A stretch of DNA of 64,000 bases from Candidatus Gottesmanbacteria bacterium (GTDB lineage Bacteria > Patescibacteriota > Microgenomatia > UBA10105 > UBA927): assembly GCA_030679255.1 (NCBI GenBank), contig JAUXTO010000018.1, forward strand, positions 2,973 through 66,972. Reading direction: 5' to 3'. Position numbers and translations under genes: made by a program. The notes under the pieces were generated by a model, which worked only from the letters and a program-made list of their open reading frames with translations, had not been told where the DNA came from and did no database searches. Of this stretch, positions 3,096 through 64,000 are shown in pieces; the first letter of the stretch is position 1, and each line of letters begins with the position of its first letter.

Positions 3096-3098
3096 GGG

Positions 3099-3171
3099 TG
3101 GACCCGATCGGATTCGAACCGACCACCCCTGCAATGCGAATGCAGTGCTCTACCAAATGAGCTACGGGCCC
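3099..3171 (-). tRNA. tRNA-Ala (anticodon CGC).
   Basis: Reverse complement of 3099-3171 reads GGGCCCGTAGCTCATTTGGTAGAGCACTGCATTCGCATTGCAGGGGTGGTCGGTTCGAATCCGATCGGGTCCA. This is a canonical cloverleaf with G3:U70, D-arm GCTC/GAGC, anticodon loop TTCGCAT, and T-loop TTCGAAT. Confidence 0.85.
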
Positions 3172-3182
3172 GGGAAATACTT

Positions 3183-3223: not shown

Positions 3224-3244
3224 GTCAAATGGAAAAAGTGGATT

Positions 3245-3463: not shown

Positions 3464-3762
3464 ACTCACTCTAGTTTTCTCTCTTTTTTGCTCCTTGTCA
3501 AGGGGGCAAACTCGTCCTTGACACACCCTTTTCGCGCGCGTCATTATGTATATATAATAACTTTTTTCGCTAGCGGTTTTCGTTGGGTTTGAAACAGTTG
3601 GTGAAAAAAGATTGCATGCCCGGATCACTACCCAGGAATTTTTTTCATTTCAAGCATACAAATAAAAAATTAAAATCCCACGCATTTCTCCGTTTACCCA
3701 TCGTTGATGCATTTCTTTCTCTATTGATATCGTTATTGTCTCCCATGAGACACAGGAGACCC
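3464..3762. promoter_or_regulatory. Divergent intergenic control region between the small reverse-strand ORF and the giant gene. It contains an AT-rich tract and TTGACA-like boxes.
   Basis: Direct repeat tcCTTGTCAagg ... CCTTGACAcacc at 3491-3529. AT-rich stretch at 3540-3700. AGGAGA at 3754-3759 is a possible Shine-Dalgarno for ATG 3763 or 3772. Confidence 0.3.
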
Positions 3763-3780
3763 ATGAGTCGCATGAGTCCA
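3743..3780. repeat. Palindromic motif cluster 5, overlapping the giant-gene start codons.
   Basis: CATGAGACACAGGAGACCCATGAGTCGCATGAGTCC. In-frame ATGs at 3745, 3763 and 3772 all lie inside motif copies. Confidence 0.5.
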
Positions 3781-6700
3781 TCGGGTGGCTTCATCCACCT
3801 CCTCCCCCTCATCCTCCTCGCCGTATTCGCCCTCACGACGTTTATCATCGTGGGGAAAGTCGAAAAGGATAAGCAGGATGTCCGGAGCAGGGCCGCCATG
3901 TCCGATGAAGGAGGAGGGGGAGGGGTTAATCTTGACATCACCGATTCGATGCGCGCCACGCAAAACGAAGTTGCCTATGAGGAAAAGCAAGCGTCGGTGC
4001 TTCAGCAAGAACAAGAAGTCGCCTATCAAGAGGTTAAACCCCCGACCGTAAAAGACGATGATCGTCCCACAAGCGGCAACAACACCATCCAGACGACCTC
4101 ATACGACGAAGATCGTGAAGCCGCCCGGGCACGACAACTCACGGAAAATAACGCCAATCAAACGACCACCGGTACTACGACGACCACCCAGACGACCACG
4201 GAAAGAGATGATTGGCGTCCCAATTCAGGAAATACAACGACTAATACGACAGGTGGAAGTGGACAACAACAGGTCGATACGACCACGACAAATACAACGA
4301 CCAATCAAGTAAATAACGCCCCCGTTCCCGATGCAAGCATCACGACTGTCCCCGTCCCGGTTGTCATCACGGACGCACCTAAGCCTACGACCAAAGCTGA
4401 TCAGCTCACTGATTGTTACGACCAGTTTGGTTACAACAGTTCCCGGTGTGATTATTTCAAGCCCACCGTCACACAAGCGCCTTTTACACCAACAGAAATA
4501 GAGACTCCTACGCCAAAACCGAGGTTGTCCCGTTACGACGAGCTTGAAAAATCTGTCACGACGACCCCCCCTCCTGCCAACGTCACGCCAACGTCGGATG
4601 AGCGTATCGCATTGGGTATCACTCCAACGTCAACGCTCCCTCCCCGTATCGTTCCCATTAATCCACCATCAACGACGACTTCCACAGTGCCCACGACGCC
4701 TCCATCCCAGAATGTATCCAATACGAACTCGTCGCTCAATCTCGCCACAACAGCCAAATCCGCTAGTCAAATTAAGAAAGATTATGATGAATGTATTCGG
4801 AGTGATTCTGGTACTGTAGCGGATTGTTACGGTATCGCCTCTGGCAAGACGACCCCCGCGCCGATTGCCTACGTTTCTCCGGCGAATGGGGGATCCACCC
4901 CGCCGATTGCGCAAGGTACGACAGGAAAAAGCGGTACATCGACACAAACTTCCAGAGATAAATTTAAAGACGCGCCGGAGCAAACACCGGATCAAAGCGT
5001 TGGAGGCGATGCATGCGCGAAAGCGCAAGGATGGGATTTGTTTAAATGTAATCTACAGAAACCAGGCACGGCGTTTCAGGCGGCTATTATTTCGTATTTT
5101 AATCAAACGTCCATAGTCGCTCCGACCAAGGCTCCCGGTGTCGTCCCTGCCCTTACTTTTGAACAGATACAGCTGAAGCGACAAGAACTTGCTGACTGTG
5201 ATACTCCGGCATGCCGTGATGACGTGAATAAAAGATTTGGTAGCCTACCTTCGACTGTTCCCACGACGGCAAAACCACCACTAGCATCTGGCAATCAATC
5301 AGTATCAACTGCTGGCGCTCCTCCTACATCAGGTGCTAAGCCCACTGGTCCCGCATCCACGACTACCACCGCTCCGGTCGCAGCGACGACCACAACGACA
5401 ACGAGTTCCACAGGATCGACCTCCACCACCGCCTCTCTCATCCCGAAAGGTTACACCGATCCGGGGGAGGCCGGGGAGAAAGCCTGGGGAGATTGTAAAA
5501 AGTCCGGCAAATCCGATTTGGACTGCCGGGGGGCCGCGGAAAAAGCCCACGCCGTGGCAGAAGCCAATTTGCCGGCAAAAATTCGATTGAGTCAGCAGTG
5601 GCGTCAGGCTAAAGACATCGGCAGGGCGGTCGATGAAGCGAGCAAAACCATGCTTGCCGAGGCCCTCAAAGCCGCCGGGGTCAAGGACAGTAAGGGGCTC
5701 TCCGCCGATGCATCGGCCAACATCCAAGCCATCCAAAAACTTTTAGCTCAACAACTTCAGGGTGATGCGGGAAAAGGTAAAACTGCCGCCGAGCTTATCC
5801 GTATTGGGGTGCTTGCGGGTAAGCTTGCCGGAGCGTCCGCAGGGACTAAATCCTCAGTGGAGATTGCCGCCGAAATCGCATCCGCCGGCCTTTTTACCGC
5901 AAAGGCCGACCCGAAGCTCGTCGTAACGACGACCACAATCACCACGCTCCCGATGTACAAAAATTCCGGCGAAGCCGTCAAATCCAACCAAAAGACGATT
6001 ACCCCGGATCAATGTACCTGGTGCGGGAGTGCGGGCCAAGGCTACTGCAGTAAAGAATGCGGCGGCGACAAATCCTGCGACGCAGGGTTTAAATTGAACG
6101 CCGAAAAAACGAGCTGTGTCGTCGATCCCAATTACAAACCCACCCCGACCCCGGCGGCGACCGAATTGGCATCTTCATCAAAGACCACGACGACTGCTCC
6201 ACTCACCCAGGAGCAATTTGATAATTACACACTCGCTAACCCTCCGACGAAACTGAAGTTTGGTGATGCAGGGTGTTTATGGTGTAACAGTTGCGGCAAG
6301 GGTTTCTGCGCTGCTATCCCTGGCGGTGGTTGCAACGATCAGGCCGCCAACCTCTGTTCAGACTGGACAAAGACCAATGACATAATTCAGGAAAATGTTC
6401 GTCAGTCTCAAAGCACGGTCGCTGTTGCGCTCCCGCAAGCAGCTCAAGATGCGTATCAGGAGGCCATAGCCACCTATAAATCTGATGAAAAAAAGCATGA
6501 AGAAGCGGTTAAAACGTTTATTGCAAATGGTGGATCTCTCGCGCAAATCGTTGCAGCCACCGGCGCCGTCGATGCATTTGACCAATGGAAGACGTATGTG
6601 GACCGCAAAGCACAGGCGACCCAGTGGGATGAACGACGATTGGAAGTGATGGGCGACAAGCTCGATCGTAAAGTAGCCCAGCTCACTTCCCAGCAGCAGG

Positions 6701-9700
6701 CCATGCTCGTCGACCGGCAAAAAGCATTCCTCGTCAATCTTGGCGCTCAAGAAGCGGCCCGTAAAGCAGTGTTTGGCGTCTCATCCGCCGGACCGAACTC
6801 GGACTCAGCTCTTTTTGAGGCAGGCACAAGCAATCTCCCGTCGGATGTCAAAAATGATATCGACAAAGACGTCACGGACAAAACGCCGGTCGTCAAAGAA
6901 GTATTTCAACTTCAAAAAACTATGGAGGATTCGGTGCAAAATCTCCAAAAAGGCCTCGCCGAGTGTGATACCGACGAGTGTCGGACCAAGGCAGCTGCGT
7001 TTTTTCAAAATTCTAAAGCAACGATTCTCAACATTGTCAATGTCGATGCTCCCCGATTGGGCCTGGATGACGGGAGGATTAAAGAGTTCAATACATATTT
7101 GACCAATGGCGAGTATACAGCCAAACTCGCGGTGGATAAGCAAAAGCTTCTCCAGGCCTACACTTCCTGTACACCGAATTGTACAAGTACGGAAGATGTC
7201 GATGGTCGCGTCCTGGTATCCGCGGAACAAAAAGCATTCACTGCACAGTATGGCAAATATGTCACGGATCTTCGCAAGGCCAATGAGGCCAACGTTTTCA
7301 AAGAAGGCTACCAGGCGGGTTTGAACGCACTTGACGTTGATTTTCAGGTCGAAGACAAAAAGCTCGCGATGCGGGATATCCAGCTCAAACTTCCTACCAT
7401 GCCGGATCATGATATTACTCAGTATTGGCAGGATTATAACAAGTTAAAACAAGAGATCGAGCAGACGAGAGGCGTTAAAGAAGCCAATCTCGCCGATGCC
7501 TATGCTCAGACGTCCGGTTGGACGGATGCTGCAGCAAAGGCGTTTATTACCTGTATTGCAACAGGAAAAACATCGTGTGATTCTGATCCGGCTGTAAAAA
7601 CAGCGAGGACGGAAATTGTCCGAAGTAATGGCGAAAATAGTCCTCAAGTCGTCCAACTTGATCGGAAGCTTGTAGAAGTCAAAACCCGTTTTGAAATGAA
7701 CGATCTCTATGCCGCGAGGTTGGAATCCGCAGGCAAGAAAGATAATTATGCATTGGAGGATCAGTATGCCAAAACAATCAGTGAGTTAGTAAGAAACGCA
7801 GATAATTATGATCTCGTCCGCGAGATTCAAAAAGATGAAGGAAAGATAAAGACTGCATTCATAAATACTGCCGTAAGAGACGGAAAAGATTGGGCGCTGG
7901 AGATGGTATGGAGAACCGGTAATCCAGTTATAGAAAAAGATGGCACGAAGAGGGAAGCCACCAAGGCAGAATATGAAGAACAAAAGCAAGCTTTAACGAA
8001 ATTACTCGCTCAGCAGGAGGCCGCCGGAATTCCGGAGCCCGTTCGAAAGTCGTTTGAACAAAAATTCTATAACGGTGAACTGCCGGATCCGAAGAAACTA
8101 CTGGCTGATGGGACTATGCCCGTCACGTATGTACGGGATGGCGCGACAGTTACGCAGGAAGTGAAAGCCAAGCCCACGGACCTAGGCAACGTGCTCCTTA
8201 TTGCTCAGACCTCCGTTCAGAAAAACGATCACTATCAGACCTGGCTCCTCCAATCGGGAAATAAGGAAAAGACTCCGGCAGATTTTGACGCCTACCAAAA
8301 GAAAGCCTTTGAGACCTATCAAAAGGACAAATGGCTCTCAGACTTTTTCCTGACGGATGAGAAAGCGAAATCAGACTACGTGAAGGGGCTTTATACCGGA
8401 GAGAAAAATGCAGACGCCTTTGCCACAGCATGGAAGCAAACATCCTGGAGGGAAGCAGTAACTATTAAAGTTCGTTCTATGGTCGGTCCGGAAATTAACC
8501 ATAAAATGGACGAATTTTATGGACTCCAAAAGGATCTCCCCATCGTGCAAGCTGACTACGTGAGCGCGCAGCGCACGAAGGATGCAGACACGCGTATCGT
8601 TTTGAGTCGTTCAAAAGAGATCGAACAAGATCCAAATTTTGCAGATATACAAAGAGACTATGGATGTACCACCGGCCGCCAGTGTCTGGAAAAACAAATA
8701 GCTCAGATGTGGCTCATGGGGCAGGATGCCAAGTTTGGGAATAACGACAAAACCAAAAAAGTTTTTGCCGACGATCCGGATTGGGCGGTCAACGGCGTGA
8801 TAACCGGAAAATTGCAGGTGGGCGATGTCCAGAATCTGGTGAATCAGTATAACAAGGAGCGGGACGAAACAGTGATTAATCCTGTCGTGAAGTATGTTGA
8901 TACGGTTTTGGGTTTTGCAAGCAACATTCCATTATTAGGCGAGCTTGCCAAGCTCGAGAGAAAGCTCGTGGAAGGCACAGTCACCCAAGCCTATCGTCCG
9001 GCAGACGAAAAGCTCGCTTTGGGATTGGCAGAATTGTACGTCAAAAGCGTTGGCGGTACGCTGGAAGACAATGACAAGCTCAAAGATGACGAAATAAAGA
9101 AAAGAATCGTCAATGTCGCGGCCCAGATTGCCCTGGGCACGTCGCTTGATAACCTCAAAAGCGGTATTGATGCGCAAGATAACCTGTCCCTGGTCAAGAA
9201 AATGGAAATACACGGCAAAAATTCCATCCAGGCAGCGTATAAATTGGAAACGAACGCCGTAGCGCAAAAGGAATATATAGAAAAGCTGGACTGGGGGGAG
9301 AAAAACGCGCTGGATTTCGTCAACTGGACACACGGCTCAGCCGTCCGTGGTCATGTGACGACCGAGCAAGGGAAAGAGCGGCTGATAAGAGGCAGTGCAA
9401 CCGGTAACAATATTGAGTATTTTGCTGGCCTTGGTGACATGGCCCGGGGCACCGTTATGTCCGGCGGTAAACTGTATGGCACACTTCTGGCATTTACTGT
9501 ACCGGCAGCGGGACTTGTGGGGGGGACTACAGCTATCACCGGTCAAGGGTTACTCAACGCAGTGGGCACCGGCATGGGTCAGTATCTGGCCGGCGAAAGC
9601 TGGGCAGGGACAGCCGAGGCATGTTCGTTTAAATCCTCGATGGATGGGGCAGCCTGCGGCAGGTCTGCCCTCATGACGGCATTTATGACGATCTCCGCGG

Positions 9701-12700
9701 GTCAGGGTGGCGCGGCGATCTTGAATAAGCCCGCAGCATTGACAAATTCAGTTGCAGTAGCAGAAAACGTAATTGTTGGTGGGTCCAAGGTGGGCGCGAT
9801 TACGTCGGCCGCGCGCAGACTTGAAGGAGCCATCGCTGCTTCCGCACCGGTGCAAGCTATTGAACGCGCTATGGTCAGCGCGCCCGCGCAGTTAGGTCTT
9901 AATGGGTTGGGTATCGCAGCGTTTGGCGGCGAGGCGTTGCATGTTTGCGGCACCGAAGGAGTAGGGGTCAACTGCGGTATCCAGGCTGGATTTACGGCGG
10001 TGACGGCGCTTCGTTTTCTTAATGGTGGAGCGCAGATGATTGCCGCGAGGCAACCTCCGGGAAGCGCTCTGGGCAAGGTTATTACAAACGGCAATAAAGC
10101 TATCGCCGTCCTTGATGCCGGGGTCAATGGGACATTAGCCGGTTCCGCCTGTACGGCGGCCCTCGTCGGTCTTGCGCCCGGGGAGAGCTGTGGCACGGCC
10201 ATCATGTTTTTGACGACAGCGACGATTCATACACGGGATGCGTTCAAACCCGGTGGTCATCCGCCGGAGACTGCCGCTTCAACCAAAGATTCGGGAAAGA
10301 AGTTCGCATCTATGCAGGACGTGGCCAAAGATTTTAACAGCGCGCTTTCCGTAGACGCCAAGACCGGTAAGGTCACGGTTAGGGCGGATAAAGAAATTAC
10401 ATTCACAGACGTACAGGGAAAAGAAAAAAAGATTTCAGTCAAAACGACATCGACTGATGCGGAGATTGCTGCCGCGCGTAAGCAGCTCGTGAATGATTAT
10501 GCAGAGACGAAAGTCGCATTCGACGAATCGGTGAAAGTGGCCCAAGCAATAGCCCGGACGAAAGTAGATCCCAAAGACACAGCGATGGACAGCGCGATAA
10601 AGCTTGCCGAAGCTAAAAAAACATTCGACTCATCCGTCTCAGAAGCCTCATCAGACCCATCGAAATTATCCCAAGTTGATACCGCAGCCAAAGCGCTCGA
10701 AACGGCCGCCACCCGCTACCGGGCAGAATCGGCGGATCTGAAAGCCGCCCGCGGGTACAAAGTCCCTGCGGACAGTGATCCGGTCAAAGCTAAGGCACAT
10801 CAAGACGCATTAGCCACATTAGACACATTGGTCACACGAACCCGTCCCGCAGGAGAGACTCCCGCAGCTGAGAAAGCGTATAATGTGGCCTACGAACGCG
10901 CTAAAGAGGGAGTCGTTATAGCCCAGGAGTCTATCAAAGCAACGTCATACAAGGGACGACAGGAAGTTCTTCATAAAGAAGTCACCGCCGCCCGCGCCGT
11001 CAAAGCCGAGGCACAAACCCGTCTTGATAATGCCGAACCAGAGCTCGCGCTTGGCCAAAAGGTTGGTAGTTTATCACGCGCAGAACGTTTTACCGCGATT
11101 GTCAATCTTGAAGCAAGAGTTAATGAATATAAAAACGCGGCACAATCAGAAGGAGGATGGGAGGCAAAGGTCCAGCAAGCAGAAACACTGCTCACTGCAG
11201 CAAAAGCAAAACATGCATACATCACGAGTTTGGAAGTCGTTAATGGCGATAAACCACTGGCGAAACTTCCGGAAATTCCTGCGGATATCCAACAAACATA
11301 TGATGCACTGACCAAACATAGTGAAGCCCAACAGCAGATTGTTCAAGGGGCTGAAAAAGCGATTGAGCAATCCAACACGACGATTGCAGAAAAAGTCAAA
11401 GCCCGTGACGGCGCCGGGACCAGACTTGCCAAGCTCGGTGATACCCCCGTTGGCTCGTATGTCCGTACGGAAATTCTCGGAAGACTGTATCCCGAAGAAT
11501 CTCAAGCGCAACAGAGACTAGCTACCGACGTCGGCCGCAGTGTCGTCGACAAAATCCTCGCTCAACTGCGGAGCGCTCCGCAAGCTCCGGCAGCCGCCGC
11601 CAATCAGCCGCTTCTGACCCGCCTCCGTGACGTTTTTTCTCCTGATGCTGCTGCTCGCCGAACCGCTGCAGAGGCAGAAAAAGTTCAGAGCACGGCCGCG
11701 ACTGCTACACAGCGCGCACAACAGACACAAAGTGAACTATCACGGGAAGTTGCACGGCTGGAAAAAGAAGCATTGGACGCAAAAGATAGGAGTACAGTGC
11801 GTACTACAGAATATGAATCTGCTCTTGCCAAAGCCAGACAAGAATCGGAGCAAAAGCCCGCATTACACGCCAAAGAAAAAGGTGAAGTCGCATTTCAGGA
11901 ACGATTACTCGCAGAAAAACAAGCGGAAATTAGACGGTTAGAAGAAAGCCGCGCGTCACTCAAAAGCGACGTGGATAAGGCGGTGCGCGATAGCGTCATT
12001 GTGGGCGCGCGCCAGACAGAGCAAACATATCGTGATCAATTAACCACAGCAAAACAAGCGCTGGAGGATGCCATCGCGCGGACATCAGAGGTTGTTCGGG
12101 CCAATGATCAGCTTGGCAAAGCTAAACAAACTGCGCTTGATATCGAGGCTGCAAACAAATCAGCAAAGGAAAAATTAACTGAGGCCACGAAAAATACCGA
12201 CGTTGCCAAACAAAAAGAAAAACAAGCCAACGATCGGGTATTTTTAGAGCGGAAAGCCCTCAAAGATCTCGCTTCCGTGGCGAAGGATGGTCAGGCACTG
12301 CAAAAAGAACTCCGGGAGCAAAAGGATTTGGAAAAAAAGTATGACCGCGAGCTTGTGGATTTGCAGTCCGAGCGGAAAAAATTGGAATTAGAGGTACAAA
12401 AGCAGACCGACGCGCTTACCAAAGCCAGAAATGAAGTCAAATCCAAACCAAGCAAAGAAGTGTTGGATGCCAACGAATTGGTACGCCAGGCAGAAGTGAG
12501 GGTTGCTCAGGCGCAAAATGAGCTGACGCGTTTGGATAATGAACTAAAAGAAGGAAAAACAAGTAAAGCCGTTGTTGATATCGCTAAGATTGCCTATCAG
12601 GAAACCAAAAATGATGCAGAACTGAGGGTCCGTGAAGCTAATAAAGCGCGCGATGGCGTAATAGACCTCGATCCGAGGGCGCAGAAAGCCAAGGATGCTT

Positions 12701-15700
12701 TGGATAAGACATGGAAATTACTGACGGAGAAAAATCAGAAATACGCCACAACAAATAAAGCCTGGGAGACAGCAACCAACCGAATTACAGAGTTAGAATC
12801 CCTTCCGTTATCTAAATCCTTCGCCCAGCGTCTTAAAGACGCCTTCATTCCTCCCAAGACAACTGTTCCCGCCTCGCCCGTCGATTTATCCGCCGAAGCT
12901 CCGGCGAAGGCGGACCCCACCGCCGTCAAACAGATCTTCGACCGTACCACGGTCTACAATGAATCACTCCGGGCAGCACAAGATGCGTTGGGAGAAAATG
13001 TATTAGCATCTCCATCCCAAGAAGCCATCAGACGAGCTCAAGATGCCACAAAACAGATCATAGAACAACAGCTAGTTCTTGAAAATGCTGCTGCTCGTGG
13101 GGTTGCTGCCGATTCGGTGGCAAATAGTTTGAACTTTAAGCCTCGTCCGCGTGGCATTGCCGCGATGCAGGCTGGGATAGAAACGCGTCAGGTATGGGCA
13201 CGGGATGTATGGAATGCTACGGCAGAAAGTACACAGGAAAGAGTCTGGGGAACCGTGGAGAAGCCAAGCCGCCTCCGGTTATTTGTCGACCGTATGGGTG
13301 ACGGTCCGCTCAATCGCGCACTTGCCGCAAGTGAGATGGCCCGCGCATACAACCGGCAGGAAATTACGGGATTTGTGGCTACTGCCAAAGTTGAAGGCGT
13401 TCTGCGCGATGGTAAACAGATACGACTTCGCGGTGCAGGTGATACGATAAAAAGTTTGAGTGATACCCTCTCTGGCTCACCCGATGGCGTGTATGATGTC
13501 ACAACCAGCGGAGAGAACGTTCGCGTGGTCAAATATGGAAATAAATTGTACGTTGGGAGTCAAAACAGTCCCGAAGCAGTTGCGAACGCATTTGCAACGA
13601 AAGAATCATTGACCATCAAATCGCGCGTGACGGATATTCCTGTCGATAGCAGCGGAAAAGTCACTGTAACCATCAATGGAGAAGCAATCGCAGCGGATTC
13701 GTTTGCTGCATTGAAGCCTAAATTGGCAGGGAAAAGTGGTGTCGCCCGTAGTGAGATTGGCGGCAAAGAAGTGCTCTTAGAAGTGCGGGAAGGTGATGTG
13801 TTCATTGCCAAAAACGGGAGCAACGGACAGCCGCAACTCGTTGAAGGGAAGATCGGGACAGAATTTTGGATCGATGAGTCGATTGCCAAAACGAGGAGCG
13901 CTAAGCGGGTCATCGCAGAGTTGAAACGAGGCATTGCAGATATCCAGAAAGCCAAAGGCGACCAGCAATTTTGGGGATTTGAAAAAGGAGAGAAAAATCA
14001 AGTTCAGTATATTGCTGACGCCATTTTAGGCCGGGAGACCGGACAACGCGGCACGCTTTACGAGGCGATCACCGGAATAGGAAAGACGACCACGATTATT
14101 CCGAGTGTCGCGGTTCTCAAGGCCCGCATCACCGGTTCGCCGGTTGTGGTGATCCTCAATACGACGGCTGATGTTGCGGCGTTTTTTAAAGATTCCCCGT
14201 CGGAATTTTTTACGAAAGTCGGGCAAAAAATCGTCGAGTTTGACGCCAACAATTTTGATCCAGGAAGCCCCGCGCATACCAAAGCCCTTGCGGAAGCCAA
14301 CATCATCGTCACGACCAAAGATGCGATTTTTGAGTCCATCAAAGGCAAGCAAGGTGAGCCGTTTCTGCGGAAAGCCAAGGGGTCGGTGCTCCTTGCTGAT
14401 GAAGCCCAAAATACCCTGCGCCTGGAGATCGACTACATCATCACCCATGGTGGCCGGACGCGGCTTGCGGACCGTCCCGACGGACAGTCAAAGATCGATA
14501 TGTTCACGGAGGTTTTGGATGGGGCAACCCTAAAGAAGCTTCGTGCCACACTTGCCGAACGGGGGCTTGAGGCGATGCTTGAAGAGTCCGGTATCACGCG
14601 CGCAGATGGCCGCGGCAAGGTGGGGAAAGCGGAAGTGCTTGCCGAAAGTTACCGCGATCTTTTGGAATCAGCGATTGCCGCGACGGAAAAGGCAGTTCCG
14701 GGGAGCGAGACCGCCATACGGGAGTACTTGCGGACAAAAGGGCTGGAAACGGGTCAGCCGGTCACGAGCGAACAGGCATTTGCGCGGTTTTTGAATGAAA
14801 TTTCTTTTGCTGGAGACAGTAGCGTTGCCATCAAGATAGTACAAGCCAACACGCGGGAGAGGATTGCAGCGTTTAATAGTATTGTGAATCAGTTTGCCCA
14901 AGTGCCGGGCAATGACTTTACGGCTGGTAAAGGTGGGTTTGTCGTCCTTGCCGAAGGAGGCGCGATATCCGGCAGGACTCCTTCCCGGGCGTATGATTCG
15001 CTTGCGCTTGCCCAGGTGGGGTTTGAAGTACTTTCCTCCCGCGGGGTGAAGGATCTCGTCAGTCCACCGCTTCGGGATGTATCGATAAGCGAAAGCAGTA
15101 TCGGTACCAATTATGCCAAGTTTCTCAAAAACTTCTCCGAGATTTACGGGTTTACGGGGACTCCTGATCGGGTAGCAGCACAGTTTGATCGGGTTTATGG
15201 TATTAAACTCGGCAGCGGTGGGGTCAAGCAGTTTGATTTCGTCTTCGGTGATCCGGTAAAAGGCTCCCCGGCCAAGCACGGAATTGCTTCTATCGTGGGT
15301 TTGGGTCAGGCTACTACTGAGAAACTGCGCGAGACGTTTTCTACGGTTGTTGACGGGCAGGGAGACAAACAAGTCACGCATATCGTCAATACCGATAGCA
15401 GTATTCCCCAGGGAGAACTCCTTGGATTTGCCCGTGAGCAGGCAGCGAAAGATTTGAGCGGGAAGTATGCCGGCAAAGGTGTCGTGGTCATCGTCAATGA
15501 TCCGAATGGTCAACATTACGCCGTAGAATTTGGCCGCGACGGAAGTGGGAAAGTGGTCGAAACGTCGCGCCGGATGCTTACTGATAGTGACGCTAAACGC
15601 GTGAGCGCAGAAACGAACAATACAGCAATCACTTCAGCCAAAGAACTCATCAATAGCGAGCTTGCGGCAGCCCGGACAGATGGCAAGCGGGTATATCAGA

Positions 15701-18700
15701 TTTATGAAATCGGACAGCATTATGGGGTAGACCGCGTGACCTTAGCACAGGATGGGTTTGTCGTTCTTGCCAACAACAATACGACGCTCACGGATTTTCT
15801 CCAGGGGGTGGGACGCGACCGTGGACTGAATGGTGGTGCTGGGACGAATGCATACTCTCGGGTTGATGCGATCGTTCGTGGTGTAGACGTAGCGAATCAA
15901 GGCACATTTACCGATCAGGCAGCGATACGCAATCTCGCCGATCAGGTATTGCGTGCCTCAGAGAAACGTGCCATTGCCCAGTCTGAGCTGGATGCGCTAG
16001 GACGCATCGCCGAAAACGTCGGGTTCGATGTTATTGCGCGTATGGAAGAGGCAGCAAAAGGTGGAAGGATTACGCAAGCCTGGAATAGTGGCAAAGTCCC
16101 GCAGGCGGCTCTTTTTGACGGTCTTCGCGAGACGCTCCGCAGCCGCGCTGAGCTGGATTTTTCCATCGGCAAAAGCGATGTGACCGGTAAACAGGATTTA
16201 CTTGAAAAGGTGAACCGTATCCAGAAAATGTTGGTTGAAACCTACGAGAGCGAGTCCTATAAATCTTTGCCGGAGTCTTCCAAGCGGGTGCTTCGTGATG
16301 CGTTGACACAACAGGATGGTACGGTCAAAACAAATCTTTTTACCGAGGCGGACCTTGTACTTCGTGGTGACCGGAAAAATGGGAAAGGAGACGCTGTCGG
16401 CGCTCTCAATGAGTCAAAAAATCTCATCGATTATCTCGACCGAGTTAATGGTGTTGTGAAAGCAGAGGATATACCCAAAACTATCGCTCGCGGCTTGGTC
16501 CCAACGGAAAAGAATACCGATTTTGCTGCAGCAAATCAAACGGGTCAAGCGCCATCAGTTTCCGCTGTTCCCAACGATCCCATTGGCACCGCCAACCGCC
16601 TCGCCGCCGAGATTGCCAATCGTGGAACTGCCGCTGACACGACTCCCCTCACTACCTCTCAACAAACGACTCTCGCTGCGGGTTTTGTCGCCGCCCAACA
16701 AGCGCTTACACAGGCCGCTTCTGCCCGTGATCAATTTGCTGCAACTATTCCACAACAATCATTCCGTACGTCAGGCTCTTTGAGTCTCGATGACCATATT
16801 ATCGCGGTTGACAGTCAGGGTAATCGGGTGATGCTAGCGATTGGAAAAGATACGAAAATTGTCACACCGCTTGCCGGTGGTGCAGGCGAGACATATTACG
16901 ATTTTAATGTTAATTTTCAACCATTTCAGATATCTGATCAGGTAAGGACACTTACCATTCAGTCCGGCAATGAAGTGTATACGGTGGGCGCTGATCAACT
17001 TGATGATGCCAGAAACAAGGTGGAGCAGGAACTCATCACTCCCGAAGACCAGACCAAGAGAGATGCCCTGGAAAATGACCTCGCTCAAGCCAAAGCACAG
17101 GCAAAAGAGTTTGAGCGTTTACTCGTCCAATCTCCCCAAATCCCCCAATCTCCCCAAATACCCCAATCACCCCAACTTCCCGTCGACCTCCGCTCCGGCC
17201 CCTGGACCAAACCTGTCGCCGACGCAGTAGCCCAAGACCTCGCCACCGGTAAAAAGACCGTGGCAGAGGTTGGGCTAGCCGAATCGTACGCCCTCCACGC
17301 TCAATCCGTGGGTCAAACCAGGACTGATATTGAGAAGAGGCTCGCCGCCGACCTCGCCGAACGCATCACTCAGGCTCTTCCCTCTAGTGTTTCTATCCCA
17401 TCTAGTGTTTCTATCCCTCCTTCTCTTCTCTCCGCCGTCGCGGCCTACGAAAACGCCGTCACCAAGGCACTCTATCATGACTACGACAAGTTCACTGCAT
17501 CCGAAGGCCGTACCCCCGACGAGGCCCAAAAGCAAATCCAGCTCGCAACTGACACGATCGTCATAGCCCGGGCCAACGCAGAGGAAGCGATCGCTAAGGC
17601 GCTTGCGGGCAAAACGGATCCAAATGCGCAGCTCACGGTTGCTGAACGGGTAGCGGGAAACCACGCCCTTACCGCCATCTCCGGCGCCCTCATCGCCGAT
17701 GCCCCGGCCGTCGCCGCCCGCCTCTCCGCCTTCGTCACCGGCGCCCGGGCCACTGGTATCAGTCCGTTTGTAGGGGATAAACCGTTTACCAACGTCACTG
17801 AAGTGCTTTTCCGCGCGACGCTGAGCGCTATCTTTCCACCGGCATCCCTCAGCCGTGCAATTATGCAAATTCCGGAGTTTTTAACTTCACTATCGCCGGA
17901 CTACGTTGCCCGTTTGAGAGCTATACTGGATCGGGTAGGCGCAACAAGAACGGATCGTTTATCGAAATATCTTTTTAACGCTTTCTCGACGTGGCTCAGC
18001 GTAAAAGATCCGGATTTTGCTCCTGCCGCACCGACTTCTACTGCTCCTTCGACTCCGTCTACCGCCACTTCCGGTACGGCCGAAGTCGTCCGATCAATGA
18101 AAGAAATCACTGATAATCTTGATAGTCTCCTTTCTGCGAGTTCGACACTTCCTACCCCTGATGCTGTCATGAGCCCTATCGAACGAGCTCAAGTCTATGA
18201 GAGTTTATCGTTGCCGGATGCGGGGGTCGTAGAGAGCGCAAAACAATTGCTTCAAGGTGACGTTGGCATTCGACTCATGAGGGCATTAGGTCAGAAGACG
18301 GATGTATTGTTGTCGTCACAGGTAGAGGCCAAACAAACAGCTACTATCGATGCCATCATCGCCTACGAAGCCGCGGTGTTGTCCGGAGATAAGACTCAGA
18401 TTGCCGCTGCCAAGTCAAAAGCCGAAGCAGCCATCAAAACCTTCGTCACAGATTCTTCTCCGGAAATGCAGTCGATACGCGCCGGAGCGCCGAAGAAATT
18501 TATATTCGGCATTGATTATGCCGCCATCCTCACCCGTACTTCATCAGTCGTCGTTTCACCATCAAAAGTTTCAAATTCTGCTCCCTCTCTTCCTTCTACT
18601 CCTCCTCTTTCCTCTGTTTCCCAACCCGCCCCGGCTCCCGTAACTTCTCCTACAACTCCCGTAGGTTCTCCCGTATCAGCTCCCGCTACGAGCCAACTAT

Positions 18701-57700: not shown

Positions 57701-60700
57701 CTGGTAAATCTGAAAGGGATTATTTTGATGCCCCTGCAGTGAAGCCATATATAAATACAGTGGTAAATAATATGGCAATTGGGGATATAACCCAAGTCGA
57801 CCCACTCACATTTCGTTTGCTTGCAGCGTTGACCACCGATATGGTTTTCCTGCGACAACAAACCGCCAGCGTTCCATTTACCACACTTGGATTACCTGCA
57901 AAACCTCCCGTCGCATTTGTTCCGATCGGACAGCCACCTGCAGATTCTCAGAAAGCGCCAGCGTTGACGCCTAATCAGCCGGTGTCTACGCAGGTATCTC
58001 TCGGGTCATTTACACCTACTGCTGATCAATTATTGAGTACAATTCCTATTCCTCCGGAGTTGCCTACGCTTGTGGCACAAGCAAGTTCATTATTGGATCA
58101 AGCACAAGAAGACCTCAACCAGGGGAAGAGAGATGTGTTTGAACAACATGTAGCGCAAGCCCATGGACAAATCGCAGACCTCATGAAGCACTGGCCGACT
58201 GACGACGACGTGCAACGAGTCATAGCCCAACACAACTTATTGACGGCTCAGATACGTGGTAAAGGTATTCAGATGATCGTATCCACAAATGAATCAAAAT
58301 CAAATCAGATTATCACTGCATTTCGGTGGGACGGGAAAAAAGTCGAGATTTATCTTTCCAACGAACAAGGAGACGAACAATTTCCTGCTTTAGGAATCCA
58401 AGAAACCTCCACTGCCGATACCGCTCAGGAATATGATCAACGAATTACTGAATATCTGTCAAATCGGGGAAAACAGGCATTTTACGCGAGAAAAATATCG
58501 AGGGTATTAGATGGCATTGAGGATATCGTAAAACCACAAAATGCTCATACCCCTAAGGACGTAGGATCCGCTGGCCTCGGCGGGGGAGGAGAGGGAGAAA
58601 ATAAATTACTCAATTTGCTCAATTCCGGAAACGTCAGGATGAAATTCCCTTTTTCGTATCATTTCAGTACTGGTTTTTCACTGGCGAGCAGGATGTATGG
58701 TATCAATCCTACTGATGGAAGTGACGTCAATAAGGCAAAACTTAAACAACTCTTCGGATCTACGAGAAATATCATGGATCCAGTATCACTTAATATGGTG
58801 AATGATGTGGTTGCGGTTCGGGTTTCGGTTATTGATGGTTCATATGTGATGATTGAACAAAATTATGCGGAGTTATTTGCGATGGCCGTTTATTATGGAC
58901 TGACGCCTGAAGAAATTTATGTCTATGATCGCGGGACAGGGAATTACATGAGCTTGAATGATCTTTTATCAGTTGTTCCGCAAAGAACAGAAACAAAAAG
59001 CCGCTATGATGTTTTATTCACCGACATGGAGAAAGATGAAAAGACCAGCCGTGGGTACGCTGATTATTCAGATATTTTTCCTGACCAAAACCCACAAGGT
59101 CTATCCCTTGAGACAGTTCTTATGGATCTTCTAGAAAAGAAAGCACTGTCTGGTGACCACACGCTTACGATTCTCGACCAGGGGGCCGGGGTAGGAAATT
59201 TTGGCCGTGTCCTCGCTGCTTTGTTTGAAAACCCAAATAGGAGTGATAAGGAAATGAAGCAATATTTCGGTAATAAGAAATTTCTTGCCGTATGGAGACC
59301 TGAGCGCATGGAAGAAGCTCGGCGTATTGCCCGGCGAGCGAGGGACCTTGGCATCGCATTGCGGTACGTGGGTATTACGGATGCCAATCGTACGCAAAAT
59401 CTTTTTGATAGAAACTGGACGATTGGGGCGCCTGGAAAGAGTGTCTTTGCGGAAAATATTGCGTATACCTATACGCCGAGACAACGGCTTAAACAGGTGC
59501 TCGATACTTTGGGTATTACTTCTATAGATTTTGCATTTAGCGTTGCATTTGAATCGTATTTAGATGAAACAACGCACACAGCCCTTACTCAGGATATTAT
59601 TGGAGCATTGGGGCAGGATGGCATCTACGTTGGAGAGACGGCAAAGCTGCAATTGATGCTTCAAAATTTTGAGCGGAAAGGAATTGTTACGTTGCTTGAT
59701 GCAGCCCAACAGGTTTCTTACGGGGTAACATATAGCAGTTTAAGGAGTATATTTTCCGTCAGACGCACTAAACAAAGTGATCGTAAACAATTCACGACAG
59801 CCGGAGAACGGGTGGTACAAGCGGAACTTCGGTCAAATCCTCAAATTAATGCAGATCAGCTTGCTCAGCACGCAATTGATGCGCTGGCAGAAGCTAAAGC
59901 TCATTCGGATTTATTGCAATCCGTTTCTCCCGCCGGCGGGGGAGGAGAGAGACCGATGGATACGTCCAATTTAGCCAGTAGAAAAATAGTCGAAGCCGAG
60001 GCGGTCAGACTTATTGAAACATCCAATAAAAATGCAGCAAGTACGCTCATGGCCCAGTATGAGCGGTTGGTTGCGGGACTCGTAAACGTACTGGAACAAA
60101 ATCCTAATCTTTCGTTAGATTCATACCTTGATATGGTGGCGACCAACGATAACGTACGGGAGCTTCTGGGGATCAGCCCGACTGGAGATCGGAGTCCTCC
60201 AACTCCTTTTCAATCGTCCCTTCGTACTTCTCTCGCCTCCGACCTCCCGTCCCTCCATACCCAGGCCGCACAGCCAAATGCCACCAAAAAACCCGCTTTC
60301 GCGGGTTTTGGCGATCTCGCCAGGTTGGTAAAAAAGCTGGACCTAAGAAGTAATGTACTTATATCATTTTATGAACGTTTTGTCACTCCCAGCTCCCAAC
60401 CTGGCAGGCCCACTCCATTGGTGAGTATACCACAGCAAATTCACGCTGTTTTATCAGATTTTGTGGCTAAATTTCTGCCTAAAAAGAATGTTTTGCAACC
60501 TGTCCCCGGCGGCACCGGCGGCGGGGGAGACGGAGGAGCGGCAGTGATGCCCGGGGAGTCCGGATTGACGCCTCTTGAATTGAAAGCCAAACAACTGACC
60601 GAACCGGCAGCAGCGGCCATTGGAGAAGCGCTCGTGAAGCCTCTTGAGAAAAAAGTTAATGATCTTTGCAATGATCGTACGGGATTTATACCGGGTGGAC

Positions 60701-63700
60701 AGCAGAAATTGGCTGACGGGTCAGGATTTGCTTTCCCTCTTGGGGGGAGAGGTGCGAAAAATCAGGAGAGCAAACAGCAACACAGCAATAATGAGGAGCA
60801 TGTACGCGGACGCAGCGTCACCCAAAAATTTACTGAATTGGTCGATAGTCATAGCTTTTTACCCCTTTCGATGAACCATACGGCAACGAATAACGATACT
60901 ATACCAAACGGGAGATGGAGAAACAAGAGCGACCGAAATTTTTCTGATGATGTCGCTATAAATCCCGGACTGATGACTAACATGCCAATCCATCCGGATG
61001 ATAGATTGATAAATAATGCTCCAAACGCTTCTGCAAATGATTTTCGGGATATGGCAAACATCACCCCCGACTCTACCACTCAGCCAACTGCATTGTCAAC
61101 CAATTTTTCCTTTACGCCAAAAGTCTATGCAGACAACGGCTTTGCTCCATCCGGCGGTCCCAGCGCCCGCTGTGCTGTAGCCCGGGCGGCCGCAGAAGTT
61201 GCCCGTGGAGCAGCTGATTTTGTCAAAAACACGAGTTGGCAGATGCCCAACCGCGTATTGACTCAATGGTTTCTCGGGAGTATTCGGAGAGTGGGAGATC
61301 AAGCATATGATATATTTCGCAATGCATCCCAACGGTATGATATTGATTACAACACGTTACTCGGTAAAGGTGGAATAGCGAAAGTTTATAAAGGATTTGA
61401 CCGTTGGAGAAATGTTCCGGTCGCAATAAAAGTATTACCCCGCGGTTCGGATGATCAAGATCTAGGACGTGAAGCACGAATATTAGCTCAATTCTCTGAT
61501 TATAATGTACTCCAAGTATATGATCTGCATGCATTTCCTGATGGCACTGTTGGATTGGTGACGGAATTAGCGGATGAACATAAAACATTAGGTTCGATCA
61601 TTCAACCTGGATACGCTATTAGTTCAGACACCATGGCTGATGTGCTTGCACAGATCGGGTCTGCGATCGATCACATTCATGCTTTTGGAGTTTTTCATCG
61701 TGATATTAAACCGAAGAACATCCTGATCCAGGATCTCGGCAACGGTCTCATAAGGCCGATGTTAAGCGATTTGGGTTCAGCGGTTCTTTCCAGGCCATTA
61801 TCGACGGGACTAGTTGACGATTCAGGGTATGGAAACAGCGCACAGACCTTGATATATATGGCCCCTGAATTAGTGTTAGCGCAGGATCAACCTGCGACTA
61901 TACAAACAGATATATATTCCTACGCAGTCACGTTGTATGAAATATTAGGTGGTTTGCATCCATATTTTCCCGATCCGGATGCAGAATATCCAGTGCTTTA
62001 TTTAAGGTTTAGTTCAATTGATAGTAGTAAATACATTCCATTATCATCGATACGATGGGCAAATACCCAAATTATCGATCCGGAAGTAGTGAAAACAGTG
62101 AATCAATTGCTTCAAACGGCCTTATCAGTCGATCCTGCGCTGCGTCCGAAGTCTGCAAGCGAGCTGACCAAAAATATTATTGAAGCCATTACCAGTCATT
62201 CATACGTGTCCAAGTATCATCCAATCACCAACAGACAATTAAAAAATGTCATTCCGGATGATTCCGTCGCTCCCTCCATCGATCTCGCCAAGGCCAAGGC
62301 TGGGGGAGGGGTGAACGATACGGTGGGTACGATAACCCACGATCCTTCTCGACCTCAATGGCTCGAAGCGTTACAAAAGAGAATAACCTCATTGTTTAAT
62401 CGCATGGCGATCCAATTTGGATGGTATCGCGGTCCGGAAGCACCAATTGTCCGATTTGCACGGGAGTATGGAGATTTATTGGATCAATTATTAACTGATA
62501 CAGATGTTCGAGAGGCGATTGTGCATGATCAGCAACCATACAAAGCCATGCGGCTGGTAAATAGAAAGATACAAGATATCGTAGGGTCTAGATATGCAGA
62601 CGCTGACAGACTCAAGATTGTCGAATTTATTATAAATAAATTTGACTTTATCTGGCATGTCGGTAGGGCAACGGAGGATATACAAAGAGGTCAATATGAA
62701 TCATACCGCAAGGGTAGCCGGGGACAAAGAAAATACACTTTGAATCCTAGATATTTGTCGGTATATCAAACGGAAATCATTGAAGGATCTGTACGTCCAA
62801 AAACAGTTGAATTACCTACGGCACAAATAGAGGAGTTTGTGCAAAGGGGTCGCCAAGTCGCAGGCGCAATGGTCATACCAGCAGGGAAAATCAATCATGT
62901 CGGTGAACTTGTGGCTGGCTTAGCAGCAACTCTTGAGGATGCTGATACGCCGATAGGACGAGATCAGCGGTTGTTGATTCATCTATTGACCTTTGCGGAT
63001 CAAACAAACCCGGTTAGTGGTGGTAGCGATTTTAAAAAGGCGCTACGTACATTTTCCGAAAGCCAAATGAATCCAGAATATATTCCTGAATTGTTTTCTA
63101 GACTTCTCGCGATAAATTTTGCACGATATATGCTCTATGAGCCGTTTTGGGGTCCTGTATTGGATGTTTACAATACCAAGGTGCTCCCCATTATTCATGC
63201 TCAGGGCGCTGAGTATCAGCGGTTTCATGCGGTAACGCCGGAAAGCATTATCTGGACAGAAGGAGAGATGCCGATTGGCTGCGTTGGGCAGTGTCTCGTG
63301 CCGACGGCCATGAAAGATTTATACAGATCATTCATGGTGATTAACACAATTGGGGAAACTGGTAACTCTGTGTTTGATGTTCGTACGACTTTGAATGGAA
63401 AAAATATTACTGGAGTGCGTGACGGTTCTGTTGCATCAAAACCGAGAAATGCAGCTTTGGCGACGTTAAAGCATGAAGCTATCCATGCGCAGAAGATTGA
63501 TGAAATTGGGAGTGCAAATATCCCAACAGATACACAACTTATTGGTACCCTTGAAGGGTTGACTGAGACAGAACAGTTACGATTGACTGACATTGTTTTT
63601 GCTACTTCCCCTGATCTTTATGGTCAGTTTGAACGACCTGCCGCATATCCAGGCGAACGAATAATAAATAGAGTATTTTTTGATCTTTTAGAAGTGCCGA

Positions 63701-64000: not shown

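Follow-up and report, generated by a model that had tools for sequence, protein, structure and literature searches.

A reading frame of more than 20,000 codons in a Gottesmanbacteria contig, probably encoding a membrane-anchored megaprotein with a SecA-like motor and two inteins

Does an open reading frame (ORF) that fills almost all of a 64-kb stretch of bacterial DNA represent one gene, and if so, what kind of protein might it encode? The question is raised by a contig of Candidatus Gottesmanbacteria bacterium (JAUXTO010000018.1, assembly GCA_030679255.1), of which the 64,000 nucleotides from position 2,973 to 66,972 were analysed. This whole stretch is called the window here, coordinates refer to it, and amino-acid numbers are counted throughout from the ATG at 3763. 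The answer that we regard as probable, rather than as secure, is that the frame is a genuine gene of at least 60.4 kb and the expanded orthologue of a smaller gene of related bacteria, and that its product is a megaprotein extending from the cell surface to the cytoplasm, with a motor working in cis and with inteins that splice.

In the forward frame in question (coordinate ≡1 mod 3) the last stop codon is at 3571-3573, and from there to the end of the window the frame is open (Table 1), whereas the remaining five frames contain 636-1,303 stops each, with 966 nt as the longest open stretch among them. With stop codons at about 5% in the other two forward frames, the chance of an equally long open run is far below 1e-300, and because all three stop codons are missing the result is independent of the genetic code. 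A preliminary description of this DNA had claimed a single frame of more than 20,000 codons between 3763 and 64000. This claim holds, and the six-frame check found none of the in-frame stops on which its refutation had been made to depend. The assembly is supported up to nt 35,134 by an independent contig, the Logan contig SRR13727518_11618 (36,362 nt), which is 100% identical to the window across the 12,358 nt compared. The gene called on it has 10,457 aa and runs off the contig end, which is nt 35,134 of the window. This end falls inside a 34-nt exact repeat of the two inteins (35105-35138 = 47837-47870), where an assembler with k=31 is expected to halt. The G+C content at third codon positions (GC3) is patchy in the tail of the gene (0.36-0.55), and the main shift in tetranucleotide composition and GC3, at about 20-22 kb, coincides with the boundary between a conserved core and this tail, inside the stretch spanned by the Logan contig. 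Neither at the 34-nt repeat nor at a further exact repeat of 25 nt is there a break in composition.

Relatives retain a long frame as well. The orthologue L002, on a contig of a Patescibacteria metagenome-assembled genome (JBBTWJ010000010.1), is open across the whole 28.8 kb fetched, and L005, an independent European Nucleotide Archive (ENA) assembly from the Hainich groundwater well H41, is 100% identical to it. L002 is collinear with aa 189-6052 of the window protein at 52-56% identity. Over this collinear stretch the proportions of nonsynonymous (pN) and synonymous (pS) differences are 0.28 and 0.685, the latter saturated, and omega is at most about 0.19, by which measure the gene behaves as one under purifying selection. 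A third lineage, L003 on a 75-kb contig of the Joint Genome Institute (JGI), is open across the whole 19.8 kb fetched; L004, from a different JGI sample, is 99.97% identical to L003. On this sequence evidence the gene is genuine and single, and it probably comprises at least 20,128 codons within the window, counted from an ATG at 3616.

This start differs from the one proposed in the preliminary description. The ATG at 3763 is a possible start, with AGGAG upstream, but the in-frame ATG 147 nt upstream of it is the more likely one by conservation between lineages. The N-terminus of L002 reads MPGSLSRNFYHLKNRNKK and that of L004 MPGLLSRNFINQSRQNKK, all indels between ATG 3616 and the membrane helix are multiples of three in the window, L002, and L004, and in L004 there is no other Met ahead of the transmembrane (TM) helix. 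Because the in-frame ATG is conserved across lineages and L004 has no alternative Met, the start is most likely at 3616. The distant homologues P0013, P0014, and P0016, called by other pipelines, open with a similar N-terminus of 'MP' followed by basic residues. Just upstream, a promoter-like element that includes a TATATATAATAA box is kept as DNA in the three lineages although synonymous sites within the gene are saturated, which suggests a promoter role.

The only close protein in a collection of 5.8 billion sequences is P0001, a 923-aa fragment with 83% identity from a Candidatus Gottesmanbacteria bacterium (Patescibacteria group, Microgenomates). Judged from this match, the host is a Gottesmanbacteria-related bacterium from the Candidate Phyla Radiation (CPR), or Patescibacteria, and the relatives come from the Hainich well H41 and JGI metagenomes. 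Complete family members have 5,270 aa (P0020, locus L007) and 5,782 aa (P0013, locus L008). On both contigs, which are 0.4-0.5 Mb long, rho and a LysM/M23 peptidase gene are followed directly by the large gene, and at L007 a tRNA-Ala(GGC) and a tRNA-Ala(CGC) are placed between the peptidase gene and the large gene, the same as in the window. The shared order of M23 and tRNA-Ala genes therefore identifies the giant gene as the positional orthologue of a conserved chromosomal CPR gene, of which it is, on the evidence of synteny, an about fourfold expanded version. A profile search for the motor described below retrieved just 24 relatives among 1.84 billion cluster representatives. Most of them have 2,000-8,000 aa, and most keep the order of anchor, stalk, hydrophobic segment, coil, and motor, with differing tails. 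FHA, metallophosphatase, VanY-like, GGDEF, HD, HEAT, methyltransferase, and LytR-CpsA-Psr (LCP) modules were recognised in these tails from sequence and Pfam; the Pfam matches recorded at the relatives' loci are FHA, LCP, and weak Metallophos and VanY, and the remaining modules were assigned by reading. A tblastn search with the motor in 72,556 plasmids and 50,697 phage records gave no match, nor did a scan of IMG/VR, and an origin from a phage or plasmid was rejected on the basis of these empty searches.

The conserved core covers the first approximately 6,000 residues. Its N-terminal TM anchor is kept in L002, L004, P0003, and P0020. The Thr/Pro-rich region that follows contains, at aa 218-2143, 36 of the 50 cysteines of the protein, all of them in close pairs; 14 are left for the other 17,900 aa, and two of these are the catalytic Cys1 residues of the inteins. 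This distribution suggests that the region is an extracytoplasmic, disulfide-bonded stalk. After the Gly/Ala-rich hydrophobic segment come long helical stretches, the motor, a hydrophobic hairpin within a block of about 75% identity to L002, and a calcineurin-like metallophosphatase. The latter was missed by Pfam and was assigned by its motifs, which are invariant across four homologues, and by a PDB profile match, the best one being a cold-active phosphatase of the phosphoprotein phosphatase (PPP) type from Shewanella with a marginal E=0.013. Topology was derived from a hydropathy scan, in which TM segments appear at aa 13-31, at the hairpin (aa 5245-5295), at aa 15152-15174 and, more weakly, at aa 1907-2150. 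Single-sequence PDB searches with aa 1-10,000 gave no match. Hydropathy and domain searches thus agree with the architecture given in the preliminary description; they show an N-terminal TM segment, a Thr/Pro-rich stalk, helical regions, and then many enzyme domains.

The motor lies within the best conserved block of the protein (aa 3169-4360), with 80-86% identity to L002. Pfam sees in it only ResIII/DEAD at aa 3411-3553, and PADLOC gives a weak DinG match. The layout is that of SecA, with two RecA-like domains. The first nucleotide-binding domain (NBD1) is interrupted after motif II and before motif III by an insertion, so that roughly 250 aa separate DEAQ (near aa 3556) from GFTGTP (near aa 3807). 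An AlphaFold2 model built from an 11-sequence alignment reached a pLDDT (predicted local distance difference test) of 79.6 and a pTM (predicted template modelling score) of 0.78; an earlier run on a two-sequence alignment (pLDDT 37) was discarded. When this model was compared to the PDB with Foldseek, SecA and SecA2 took the top 15 places (E 3e-11 to 7e-8, about 700 aligned columns). The predicted fold is nearest to SecA by two methods, and the sequence identity to SecA is 10-14%. At E<=1, neither the window protein nor ten relatives are matched by SecA_DEAD, SecA_PP_bind, or SecA_SW, and a three-sequence profile of the motor against the PDB returned noise. The motor is probably a distant relative of SecA that works like SecA, and not a member of the SecA family at the sequence level. 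By its predicted structure it is a divergent SecA DEAD-like motor without demonstrated scaffold, wing, or two-helix-finger parts, and it corresponds in this to the motors without scaffold and wing domains of West-Roberts et al.

Beyond aa 6,050 or so extends a tail of at least 14,000 aa that reaches past aa 20,079 and is non-repetitive. Self-BLAST of the 20,079 aa found only six short paralogous pairs, which come from the two inteins, from two duplicated short domains, and from three copies of a spacer module about 250-330 aa long. A repeat adhesin of the Bap, RTX, or SiiE type was rejected because long tandem arrays are missing from this comparison, and the preliminary description was right in that the protein is not a simple repeat adhesin. 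The tail contains LCP and FHA domains, a GNAT acetyltransferase, a Hanks-type Ser/Thr kinase, and weaker SGNH- and Fic-like matches; a PADLOC PDC-S04 match coincides with the Fic region. The combination of TM segment and LCP is shared with P0002, which ends about 120 aa past an HEFFH motif comparable to the HExxH motifs here. Of the latter there are three where 0.19 would be expected, and their modules match no known peptidase family in Pfam or NCBIfam. The Cys content of the tail is 0.08%. Window aa 6907-9958 are absent from L002, which has about 1,400 aa of unrelated sequence in their place, and the tail of L003 carries four FHA domains and one PP2C. Such differences suggest an evolution of the tail in which entire modules are gained, lost, and exchanged.

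Some further features of the tail are noted as observations. Two pairs of duplicated modules of about 105-133 aa match no known domain; the pair at 40018-40416 and 45808-46200 (43% identity) shares the 25-nt exact repeat (40061/45851), and the other is found at 57553-57867 and 59956-60270 (36% identity). By eye, two GHKL-type ATPase modules (about aa 7,230 and 8,590), an S-adenosylmethionine (SAM)-dependent methyltransferase (about aa 18,470), a kinase-like fold (about aa 11,700), and J-domains (about aa 13,760 and 15,040) can be discerned. No search confirmed these leads and we do not claim them; the second J-domain has weak NCBIfam DnaJ matches (E about 0.06). A reading as a defence system was dropped, as PADLOC gives only generic kinase models (mad6, PD-T4-6), PDC-S04, and the weak DinG match.

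Both inteins carry the complete class-1 residue set (C-VTGDT..., TTA[QE]HPYL, and ...GTHNFVGNGIVAHN followed by Thr) and score above the cut-offs of Pfam Intein_splicing (51.4 and 43.2 bits, cut-off 35.8) and TIGR01443 (30.2 and 31.9 bits, cut-off 15.6). Both are located in Pro-rich linkers between modules. L002 contains neither of them and joins ...PQPIDAVMG directly to AREFHADTDG...; it also lacks 30-40 aa of flanking linker, so that the empty site is not base-precise. Within intein 1 there is a weak PT-HINT match (E=0.0036). The 67 detectable relatives of these inteins are nearly all from CPR bacteria and typically reside in surface proteins (DUF5011, tail-fibre/Peptidase_S74, TIGR02145) with the recurrent site ...GQ/C...HN/TY.... 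Many of them have a NYN nuclease (PF01936) where the window pair has an insert of about 200 aa. The spacer-linker-intein-module context recurs in the fragments P0027 and P0029 from other samples, of which P0027 shows spacer and intein together, and by this shared context both fragments are pieces of further megaprotein homologues.

Two elements within the inteins deserve separate mention. The insert between blocks B and F (34300-34950 and 47150-47650) is a conserved domain of about 200 aa without a Pfam match that belongs to a CPR-wide intein family, with the motifs F[ED]VDQS.RIE[ED]..., FGP..FA, L.ID.EY.GYE, and [IV]GK.SPAH.AA, and is a candidate for a new type of homing endonuclease. Right after block A, at 33880-33930 and 46870-46920, both inteins have a strongly basic stretch, KRRKKGRKQERK and KRRRKKARKQDRK, respectively, which is found in nearly all related CPR inteins (...CVTGDT.L.RRRRK...).

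Table 1. Positions of the gene, its modules, and neighbouring features in the window.
Feature	Coordinates (nt)	Strand	Basis or remark
LysM + M23 peptidase gene	1279..2358	+	conserved neighbour; present at L007 and L008
tRNA-Ala(GGC)	2432..2504	+	tRNA pair also at L007
tRNA-Ala(CGC)	3097..3171	-	tRNA pair also at L007
Promoter-like element (CGCGCGCGTCAnTATGTATATATAATAACTTTTTTCG)	3527..3570	+	conserved as DNA in window, L002, L004
Uninterrupted open frame	3574..64000	+	60,427 nt = 20,142 codons, reaching window end; no TAA, TAG, or TGA
Likely start codon (MPGSLPRNFFHFKHTNKK...)	3616..3618	+	in frame, kept in L002 and L004
9-nt repeat array (CATGAGNCN) in N-terminal coding region	3735..3795	+	family D1, 13 copies
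Alternative start ATG	3763	+	AGGAG 4 nt upstream
N-terminal TM anchor (LLPLILLAVFALTTFIIVG)	3799..3855 (aa 13-31)	+	Kyte-Doolittle mean 2.66
Thr/Pro-rich region	3880..10191 (aa 40-2143)	+	composition, paired cysteines
Gly/Ala-rich hydrophobic segment	9481..10212 (aa 1907-2150)	+	common to P0003 and P0020
Divergent SecA-like DEAD motor ATPase	13930..15942 (aa 3390-4060)	+	GIGKT, DEAQ, ~250-aa insertion, GFTGTP
Hydrophobic hairpin	19495..19647 (aa 5245-5295)	+	~75% identity to L002 in block; present in P0020
Calcineurin-like metallophosphatase	20611..21657 (aa 5617-5965)	+	DxH, GDxxDR, GNHE, H, GHxH
End of collinearity with L002 (aa 6052)	21918..21920	+	core/tail boundary; tetranucleotide and GC3 shift
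HExxH zincin-type motif HELTH	31036..31050 (aa 9092)	+	motif count
Intein 1	33859..35148 (aa 10033-10462)	+	Cys1, TTAQH, ...GTHNFVGNGIVAHN then T; Pfam, TIGRFAM, PDB DnaB inteins
GNAT acetyltransferase	46363..46641 (aa 14201-14293)	+	Acetyltransf_7 29.4 bits, Acetyltransf_1 27.9 bits
Intein 2	46849..47880 (aa 14363-14706)	+	37-41% identical to intein 1
TM segment directly upstream of LCP	49216..49284 (aa 15152-15174)	+	hydropathy; canonical LCP arrangement
LCP glycopolymer transferase	49780..50307 (aa 15340-15515)	+	33 bits, cut-off 24.6; TagT
SGNH/GDSL hydrolase-like, weak	50878..51456 (aa 15706-15898)	+	E=5e-4, under Pfam cut-off
Spacer module copy 1 (...NFSxxPxAYA...)	52189..52923	+	before FHA
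FHA phosphothreonine-binding domain	53188..53394 (aa 16476-16544)	+	56 bits; GarA/OdhI
HExxH motif HEMLH	54484..54498 (aa 16908)	+	acidic residues ~25 aa downstream
Fic/DOC-like, weak (HPVSNFNGR)	55960..56256 (aa 17400-17498)	+	E=7e-4, 20.8 bits against cut-off 24
Spacer module copy 2	56458-57417		before block without domain match
Spacer module copy 3	60760-61131		before kinase
Hanks-type Ser/Thr kinase	61351..62160 (aa 19197-19466)	+	128 bits
HExxH motif HEAIH	63472..63486 (aa 19904)	+	last module visible before window end

How could such a chain work? The protein would be inserted by its signal anchor, and because of this anchor and the paired cysteines the first approximately 2,100 aa would be placed outside the cell, where they would form the disulfide-bonded and probably glycosylated stalk. 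Motor, kinase, Fic, and GNAT modules would face the cytoplasm because they depend on ATP or acetyl-CoA, and the FHA domain would lie on the same side because it reads the phosphothreonine that the kinase makes. LCP and SGNH modules would act outside the cell, after the TM segment preceding them. With cytoplasmic modules on the one hand and LCP and SGNH outside on the other, the chain would probably cross the membrane several times. Because the motor is made before the tail leaves the ribosome, it would be well placed to feed its own chain through a channel, and it might in this way thread the later extracytoplasmic stretches such as the TM-LCP-SGNH block. The inteins would splice out and thereby restore the continuity of the chain. 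The megaprotein might then couple contact at the cell surface or with the host to wall remodelling and Ser/Thr phospho-signalling in an episymbiotic cell. The set of kinase, PPP/PP2C, FHA, LCP, SGNH/VanY-like, and M23 components resembles the signalling sets of envelope growth and division in Gram-positive bacteria.

Several observations weigh against this interpretation. For the chimeric joins that the preliminary description wished to see excluded, there is no second assembly beyond the end of the Logan contig, and no independent assembly spans nt 35,135-64,000. The true stop was not found by searches with the sequence of the 3' end; the last 59 nt of the window have no exact match in genome or metagenome contig collections, and for the last 600 aa no homologue could be detected among the 5.8 billion proteins. 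In L004, a 4-nt insertion beside a G-rich run (GAGG at 18748-18751, compared to 16498 in L003) cuts the orthologous frame into two overlapping ORFs. It is either a natural frameshift or population variant or an assembly error, and therefore either the intactness of the frame is not universal or the assemblies contain errors. About 85% of the chain has no match in Pfam, NCBIfam, PADLOC, or the PDB sequences. Concerning the motor, Pfam SecA_DEAD matches none of the 11 family motors, and the sequence profile favours generic superfamily 2 (SF2) helicases and reaches SecA with just E=0.29, at GFTGTP; because sequence searches fail to reach SecA, the relationship rests on predicted structure. As to topology, the hydropathy scan shows no return TM segment between SGNH and the FHA, Fic, and kinase modules, and the extreme Cys depletion of the tail suits export better than the cytoplasm.

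Other explanations of the same gene have to be compared with the one we prefer. The chain could be a polyprotein, an operon in one ORF that is translated as a whole and then cut at its linkers into independent enzymes, be it by its own zincin-type modules, by side-reactions of the inteins, or by host proteases. The HExxH motifs, three where 0.19 would be expected and each within a module that closes a block, the Gly-rich and Pro-rich linkers with the spacer module repeated three times, and the two Hint-fold elements in linkers and not in catalytic sites would all suit such a design, as would the fact that kinase, FHA, LCP, GNAT, and Fic are usually separate proteins. The same possibility was raised for the Omnitrophota giants (West-Roberts et al. 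2023, bioRxiv 10.1101/2023.11.21.568195). We nevertheless judge it unlikely, given that there are no known cleavage sites or products, that the HExxH modules fit no known peptidase family, and that the inteins keep the full splicing set (Cys1, TxxH, HN, Thr+1), which re-ligates rather than cuts. Cleavage of this kind would be compatible with a surface-to-cytoplasm megaprotein and does not exclude it. Much less probable is an artefact in which genes or genomes were joined in frame by the assembler, for example at the 34-nt intein repeat. The missing second assembly over nt 35,135-64,000, the two exact repeats, one of 34 nt (35105/47837) and one of 25 nt (40061/45851), a codon usage of the last 20 kb that correlates with that of the first 20 kb by 0.5-0.6 only, and the drop of GC3 to 0.36-0.43 could be taken as signs of it. 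However, the composition is patchy from about 20 kb onwards, its main shift lies within the Logan-spanned stretch, and it does not break at the repeats. The repeats are shorter than the final k of the usual metagenome assemblers. A join cannot strip stop codons from 29 kb, and each join would be in frame in only one of three cases. The independent frames of the relatives have at least 28.8 kb and 19.8 kb, and P0027 and P0029 repeat the arrangement of spacer, linker, intein, and module in other samples, which leaves us with very little belief in an artefact.

Alternatively, the N-terminal part might be a trafficking apparatus, and the variable tail a cargo that is exported to a host or injected into it in the manner of effector-delivery systems or polymorphic toxins. 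We consider this rather improbable as well, although a conserved N-terminus combined with a C-terminus varying by replacement of whole modules, the Cys-poor tail (0.08%) with its foreign-looking composition, and an in-cis SecA-like motor upstream of the cargo are what one would look for, the nucleotide-dependent kinase, Fic, and GNAT modules could function only within a cell, and the intein family is otherwise found in CPR surface proteins. Searches with Pfam, NCBIfam, and PADLOC brought up none of the known toxin, pre-toxin, or secretion-system marker domains, the gene lies on the chromosome in synteny with housekeeping genes, and no relative of the motor turned up among plasmids, phages, or IMG/VR. 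Sets of FHA, PP2C, PPP, and kinase typically serve the envelope signalling of the bacterium itself; the C-terminus is outside the window, as is any immunity gene. In its most daring form, a self-exporting 'effector cable', the core of anchor, hydrophobic segment, in-cis SecA-like motor, and TM hairpin would thread its own Cys-free modular tail, which has at least 14,000 aa, from the cell onto or into the host, where the kinase, phosphatase, Fic, GNAT, and cell-wall modules would act; the tail would be re-tooled between lineages by swapping entire modules, and the linker inteins and zincin modules would serve as conditional processing switches. To this form we give little credence. Hardly any credence at all can be given to a 'polyvalent protein' of a phage or conjugative element residing in a CPR contig. 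Unrelated enzyme domains, Hint-fold and zincin-like elements, and an SF2 ATPase in one chain are indeed recurrent themes of such proteins (Iyer et al. 2017, PMC5512222). But the motor is absent from the 72,556 plasmids, the 50,697 phage records, and IMG/VR, the gene keeps its synteny with rho, M23, and tRNA genes on 0.4-0.5 Mb contigs, its product has a membrane anchor and a stalk outside the cell, and no DNA-modification, anti-restriction, or conjugation domains were detected.

The surroundings of the gene add some observations of their own. Upstream of the peptidase gene, where the relatives have rho, nt 1-1278 of the window contain no ORF of more than 54 aa and no Rfam match, and are empty in the Logan gene calls. 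Between the two tRNA-Ala genes there is an ORF of 204 aa (2520-3134, minus strand), possibly a gene, without a Pfam match, whose 5' end overlaps the tRNA-Ala(CGC) gene and both of whose ends fall within 9-nt repeat arrays. Arrays of CATGAGNCN, whose palindromic core is TCATGA, are found not only within the giant gene, where they encode ...PMRHRRPMSRMS..., but also at 2360-2411, 2504-2573, 2714-2756, and 3174-3234, bracketing both tRNA-Ala genes. At the matching position another 9-nt array (CTCCCGTAC-like, coding for SRTSRTFHTSRTS) is found in L002, and none in L004. The arrays may be binding sites of a regulator or hot spots of recombination, and they may be the reason why the contigs of the relatives break just upstream of the gene. 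Downstream of the family members (L007, L008, and L006, the locus of P0002) are genes for NPCBM-domain proteins, sulfatases, and YfhO- or Wzy-like membrane proteins, as well as for further very large proteins of 2,598 and 2,702 aa, which hints at a surface-glycan neighbourhood.

What would such a gene mean for its bearer? Genomes of CPR/Patescibacteria have about 1 Mb, and a gene of at least 60 kb thus takes up at least 6% of the coding capacity. An organism shorn of most biosynthesis invests very heavily here in one molecule. Records of genes with more than 10,000 codons have so far come mainly from Omnitrophota and a small number of further phyla, and the same design of anchor, unannotated N-terminus, built-in SecA-like motor, and string of enzymes is now met in another radiation of ultra-small, host-dependent bacteria, which suggests that megaproteins with a motor have been used in episymbiosis convergently or since ancient times. 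Because complete orthologues (5,270 and 5,782 aa) occupy the same chromosomal position, the core can be distinguished from the expansion, and growth by accretion of modules can be studied. With its 670 residues and a confident model the motor is a compact domain that can be expressed and assayed. For intein biology, the location in non-essential linkers, the family spread through CPR surface proteins, and the uncharacterised insert are of interest. If the tail were indeed threaded out by its own core, this would constitute a principle of protein delivery outside the numbered secretion systems.

The individual parts can each be compared to known systems. With SecA and SecA2 the motor shares the predicted fold, GxGKT, DEAx, the second RecA-like domain, and a large insertion between motif II and GFTGTP, where SecA has its preprotein cross-linking domain, but it lies 3,400 residues deep within a chain of 20,000 residues and is only 10-14% identical. 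The inteins resemble class-1 inteins and bacterial intein-like (BIL) domains in Cys1, TxxH, HN + Thr, in having an insert where homing endonucleases sit, and in their absence from the orthologue. Unlike class-1 inteins they are found in poorly conserved linkers and not at conserved sites of replication and repair proteins, they have a KRRKKGRKQ basic stretch after block A, and their insert has no Pfam match. Polymorphic toxins, MARTX, and polyvalent proteins (PMC3482391, PMC5512222) have in common with the window protein a conserved N-terminus, an exchangeable C-terminal array, and Hint-fold and zincin-like elements between modules. In contrast to polymorphic toxins and MARTX, the window protein has no repeats-in-toxin, Rhs/YD, cysteine-protease, or known toxin domains, and its locus is chromosomal and syntenic; apart from the weak PT-HINT match in intein 1, no polymorphic-toxin trafficking or pre-toxin domains were found within the window. 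Surface proteins of CPR and DPANN episymbionts such as Vampirococcus lugosii (PMC8080830) are likewise membrane-localised, putatively involved in host contact, and account for an outsized share of the genome. They have 1,392-4,163 aa with WD40, PKD, integrin, and fibronectin domains (PMC8080830), and the CPR giants on record go up to about 4,000 aa, whereas the window protein is at least five times longer and has an ATPase motor and enzymes.

The closest known kind are the large and giant proteins of Omnitrophota that bear a SecA motor. Proteins of more than 10,000 aa have been termed large and those of at least 30,000 aa giant, and most giant proteins were found to contain a SecA motor, for which feeding of its own chain was likewise suggested (West-Roberts et al. 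2023, bioRxiv 10.1101/2023.11.21.568195). With at least 20,128 aa within the window, the protein described here belongs to the large tier. Size alone is no longer unique, since 18 long-read metagenomes were reported to encode 3,650 proteins with 10,000 aa or more (2026 preprint 10.64898/2026.06.07.730766). Large and giant proteins with a SecA motor occur in Omnitrophota and also in some Actinobacteria, and one survey names Peregrinibacteria among the phyla with many proteins of 5,000 aa or more. The parallel with Omnitrophota drawn in the preliminary description proves apt in so far as a structurally SecA-like motor is present, but the taxon is CPR. Shared with the Omnitrophota giants ('Archaeovorins' and relatives) are an ultra-small, probably host-dependent bacterium, a non-repetitive, membrane-associated protein of more than 10,000 aa with an N-terminus devoid of recognisable domains, a divergent DEAD motor that resembles SecA but lacks its canonical C-terminal domains, numerous unrelated enzyme modules within mostly unannotatable sequence, and a gene that is fragmented by assemblies. 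In contrast to them, the window gene resides in Patescibacteria/Microgenomates and not in Omnitrophota or the Planctomycetes-Verrucomicrobia-Chlamydiae (PVC) group, and its motor falls outside Pfam SecA_DEAD and forms a tiny family of its own (the 24 cluster representatives). Its cargo is mostly phospho-signalling (kinase, PPP, FHA, Fic) and cell-wall (LCP, SGNH) modules, it has two inteins, and few TM segments are detected. At E<=1 or E<=0.1, Pfam and NCBIfam show no C39 or S8 peptidases, glycosyl hydrolases or transferases, NUDIX, or dockerin/TSP3, and as these subtype markers are missing the protein fits neither the Archaeovorin nor the dockerin type. Neither Patescibacteria, in the context of giant proteins, nor inteins are mentioned in either preprint (bioRxiv 10.1101/2023.11.21.568195 and 10.64898/2026.06.07.730766). 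New here, compared to the Omnitrophota giants, are thus the Patescibacteria host, a motor family of its own, a cargo of signalling and cell-wall modules, inteins in linkers, and an architecture that belongs to neither of the two Omnitrophota subtypes.

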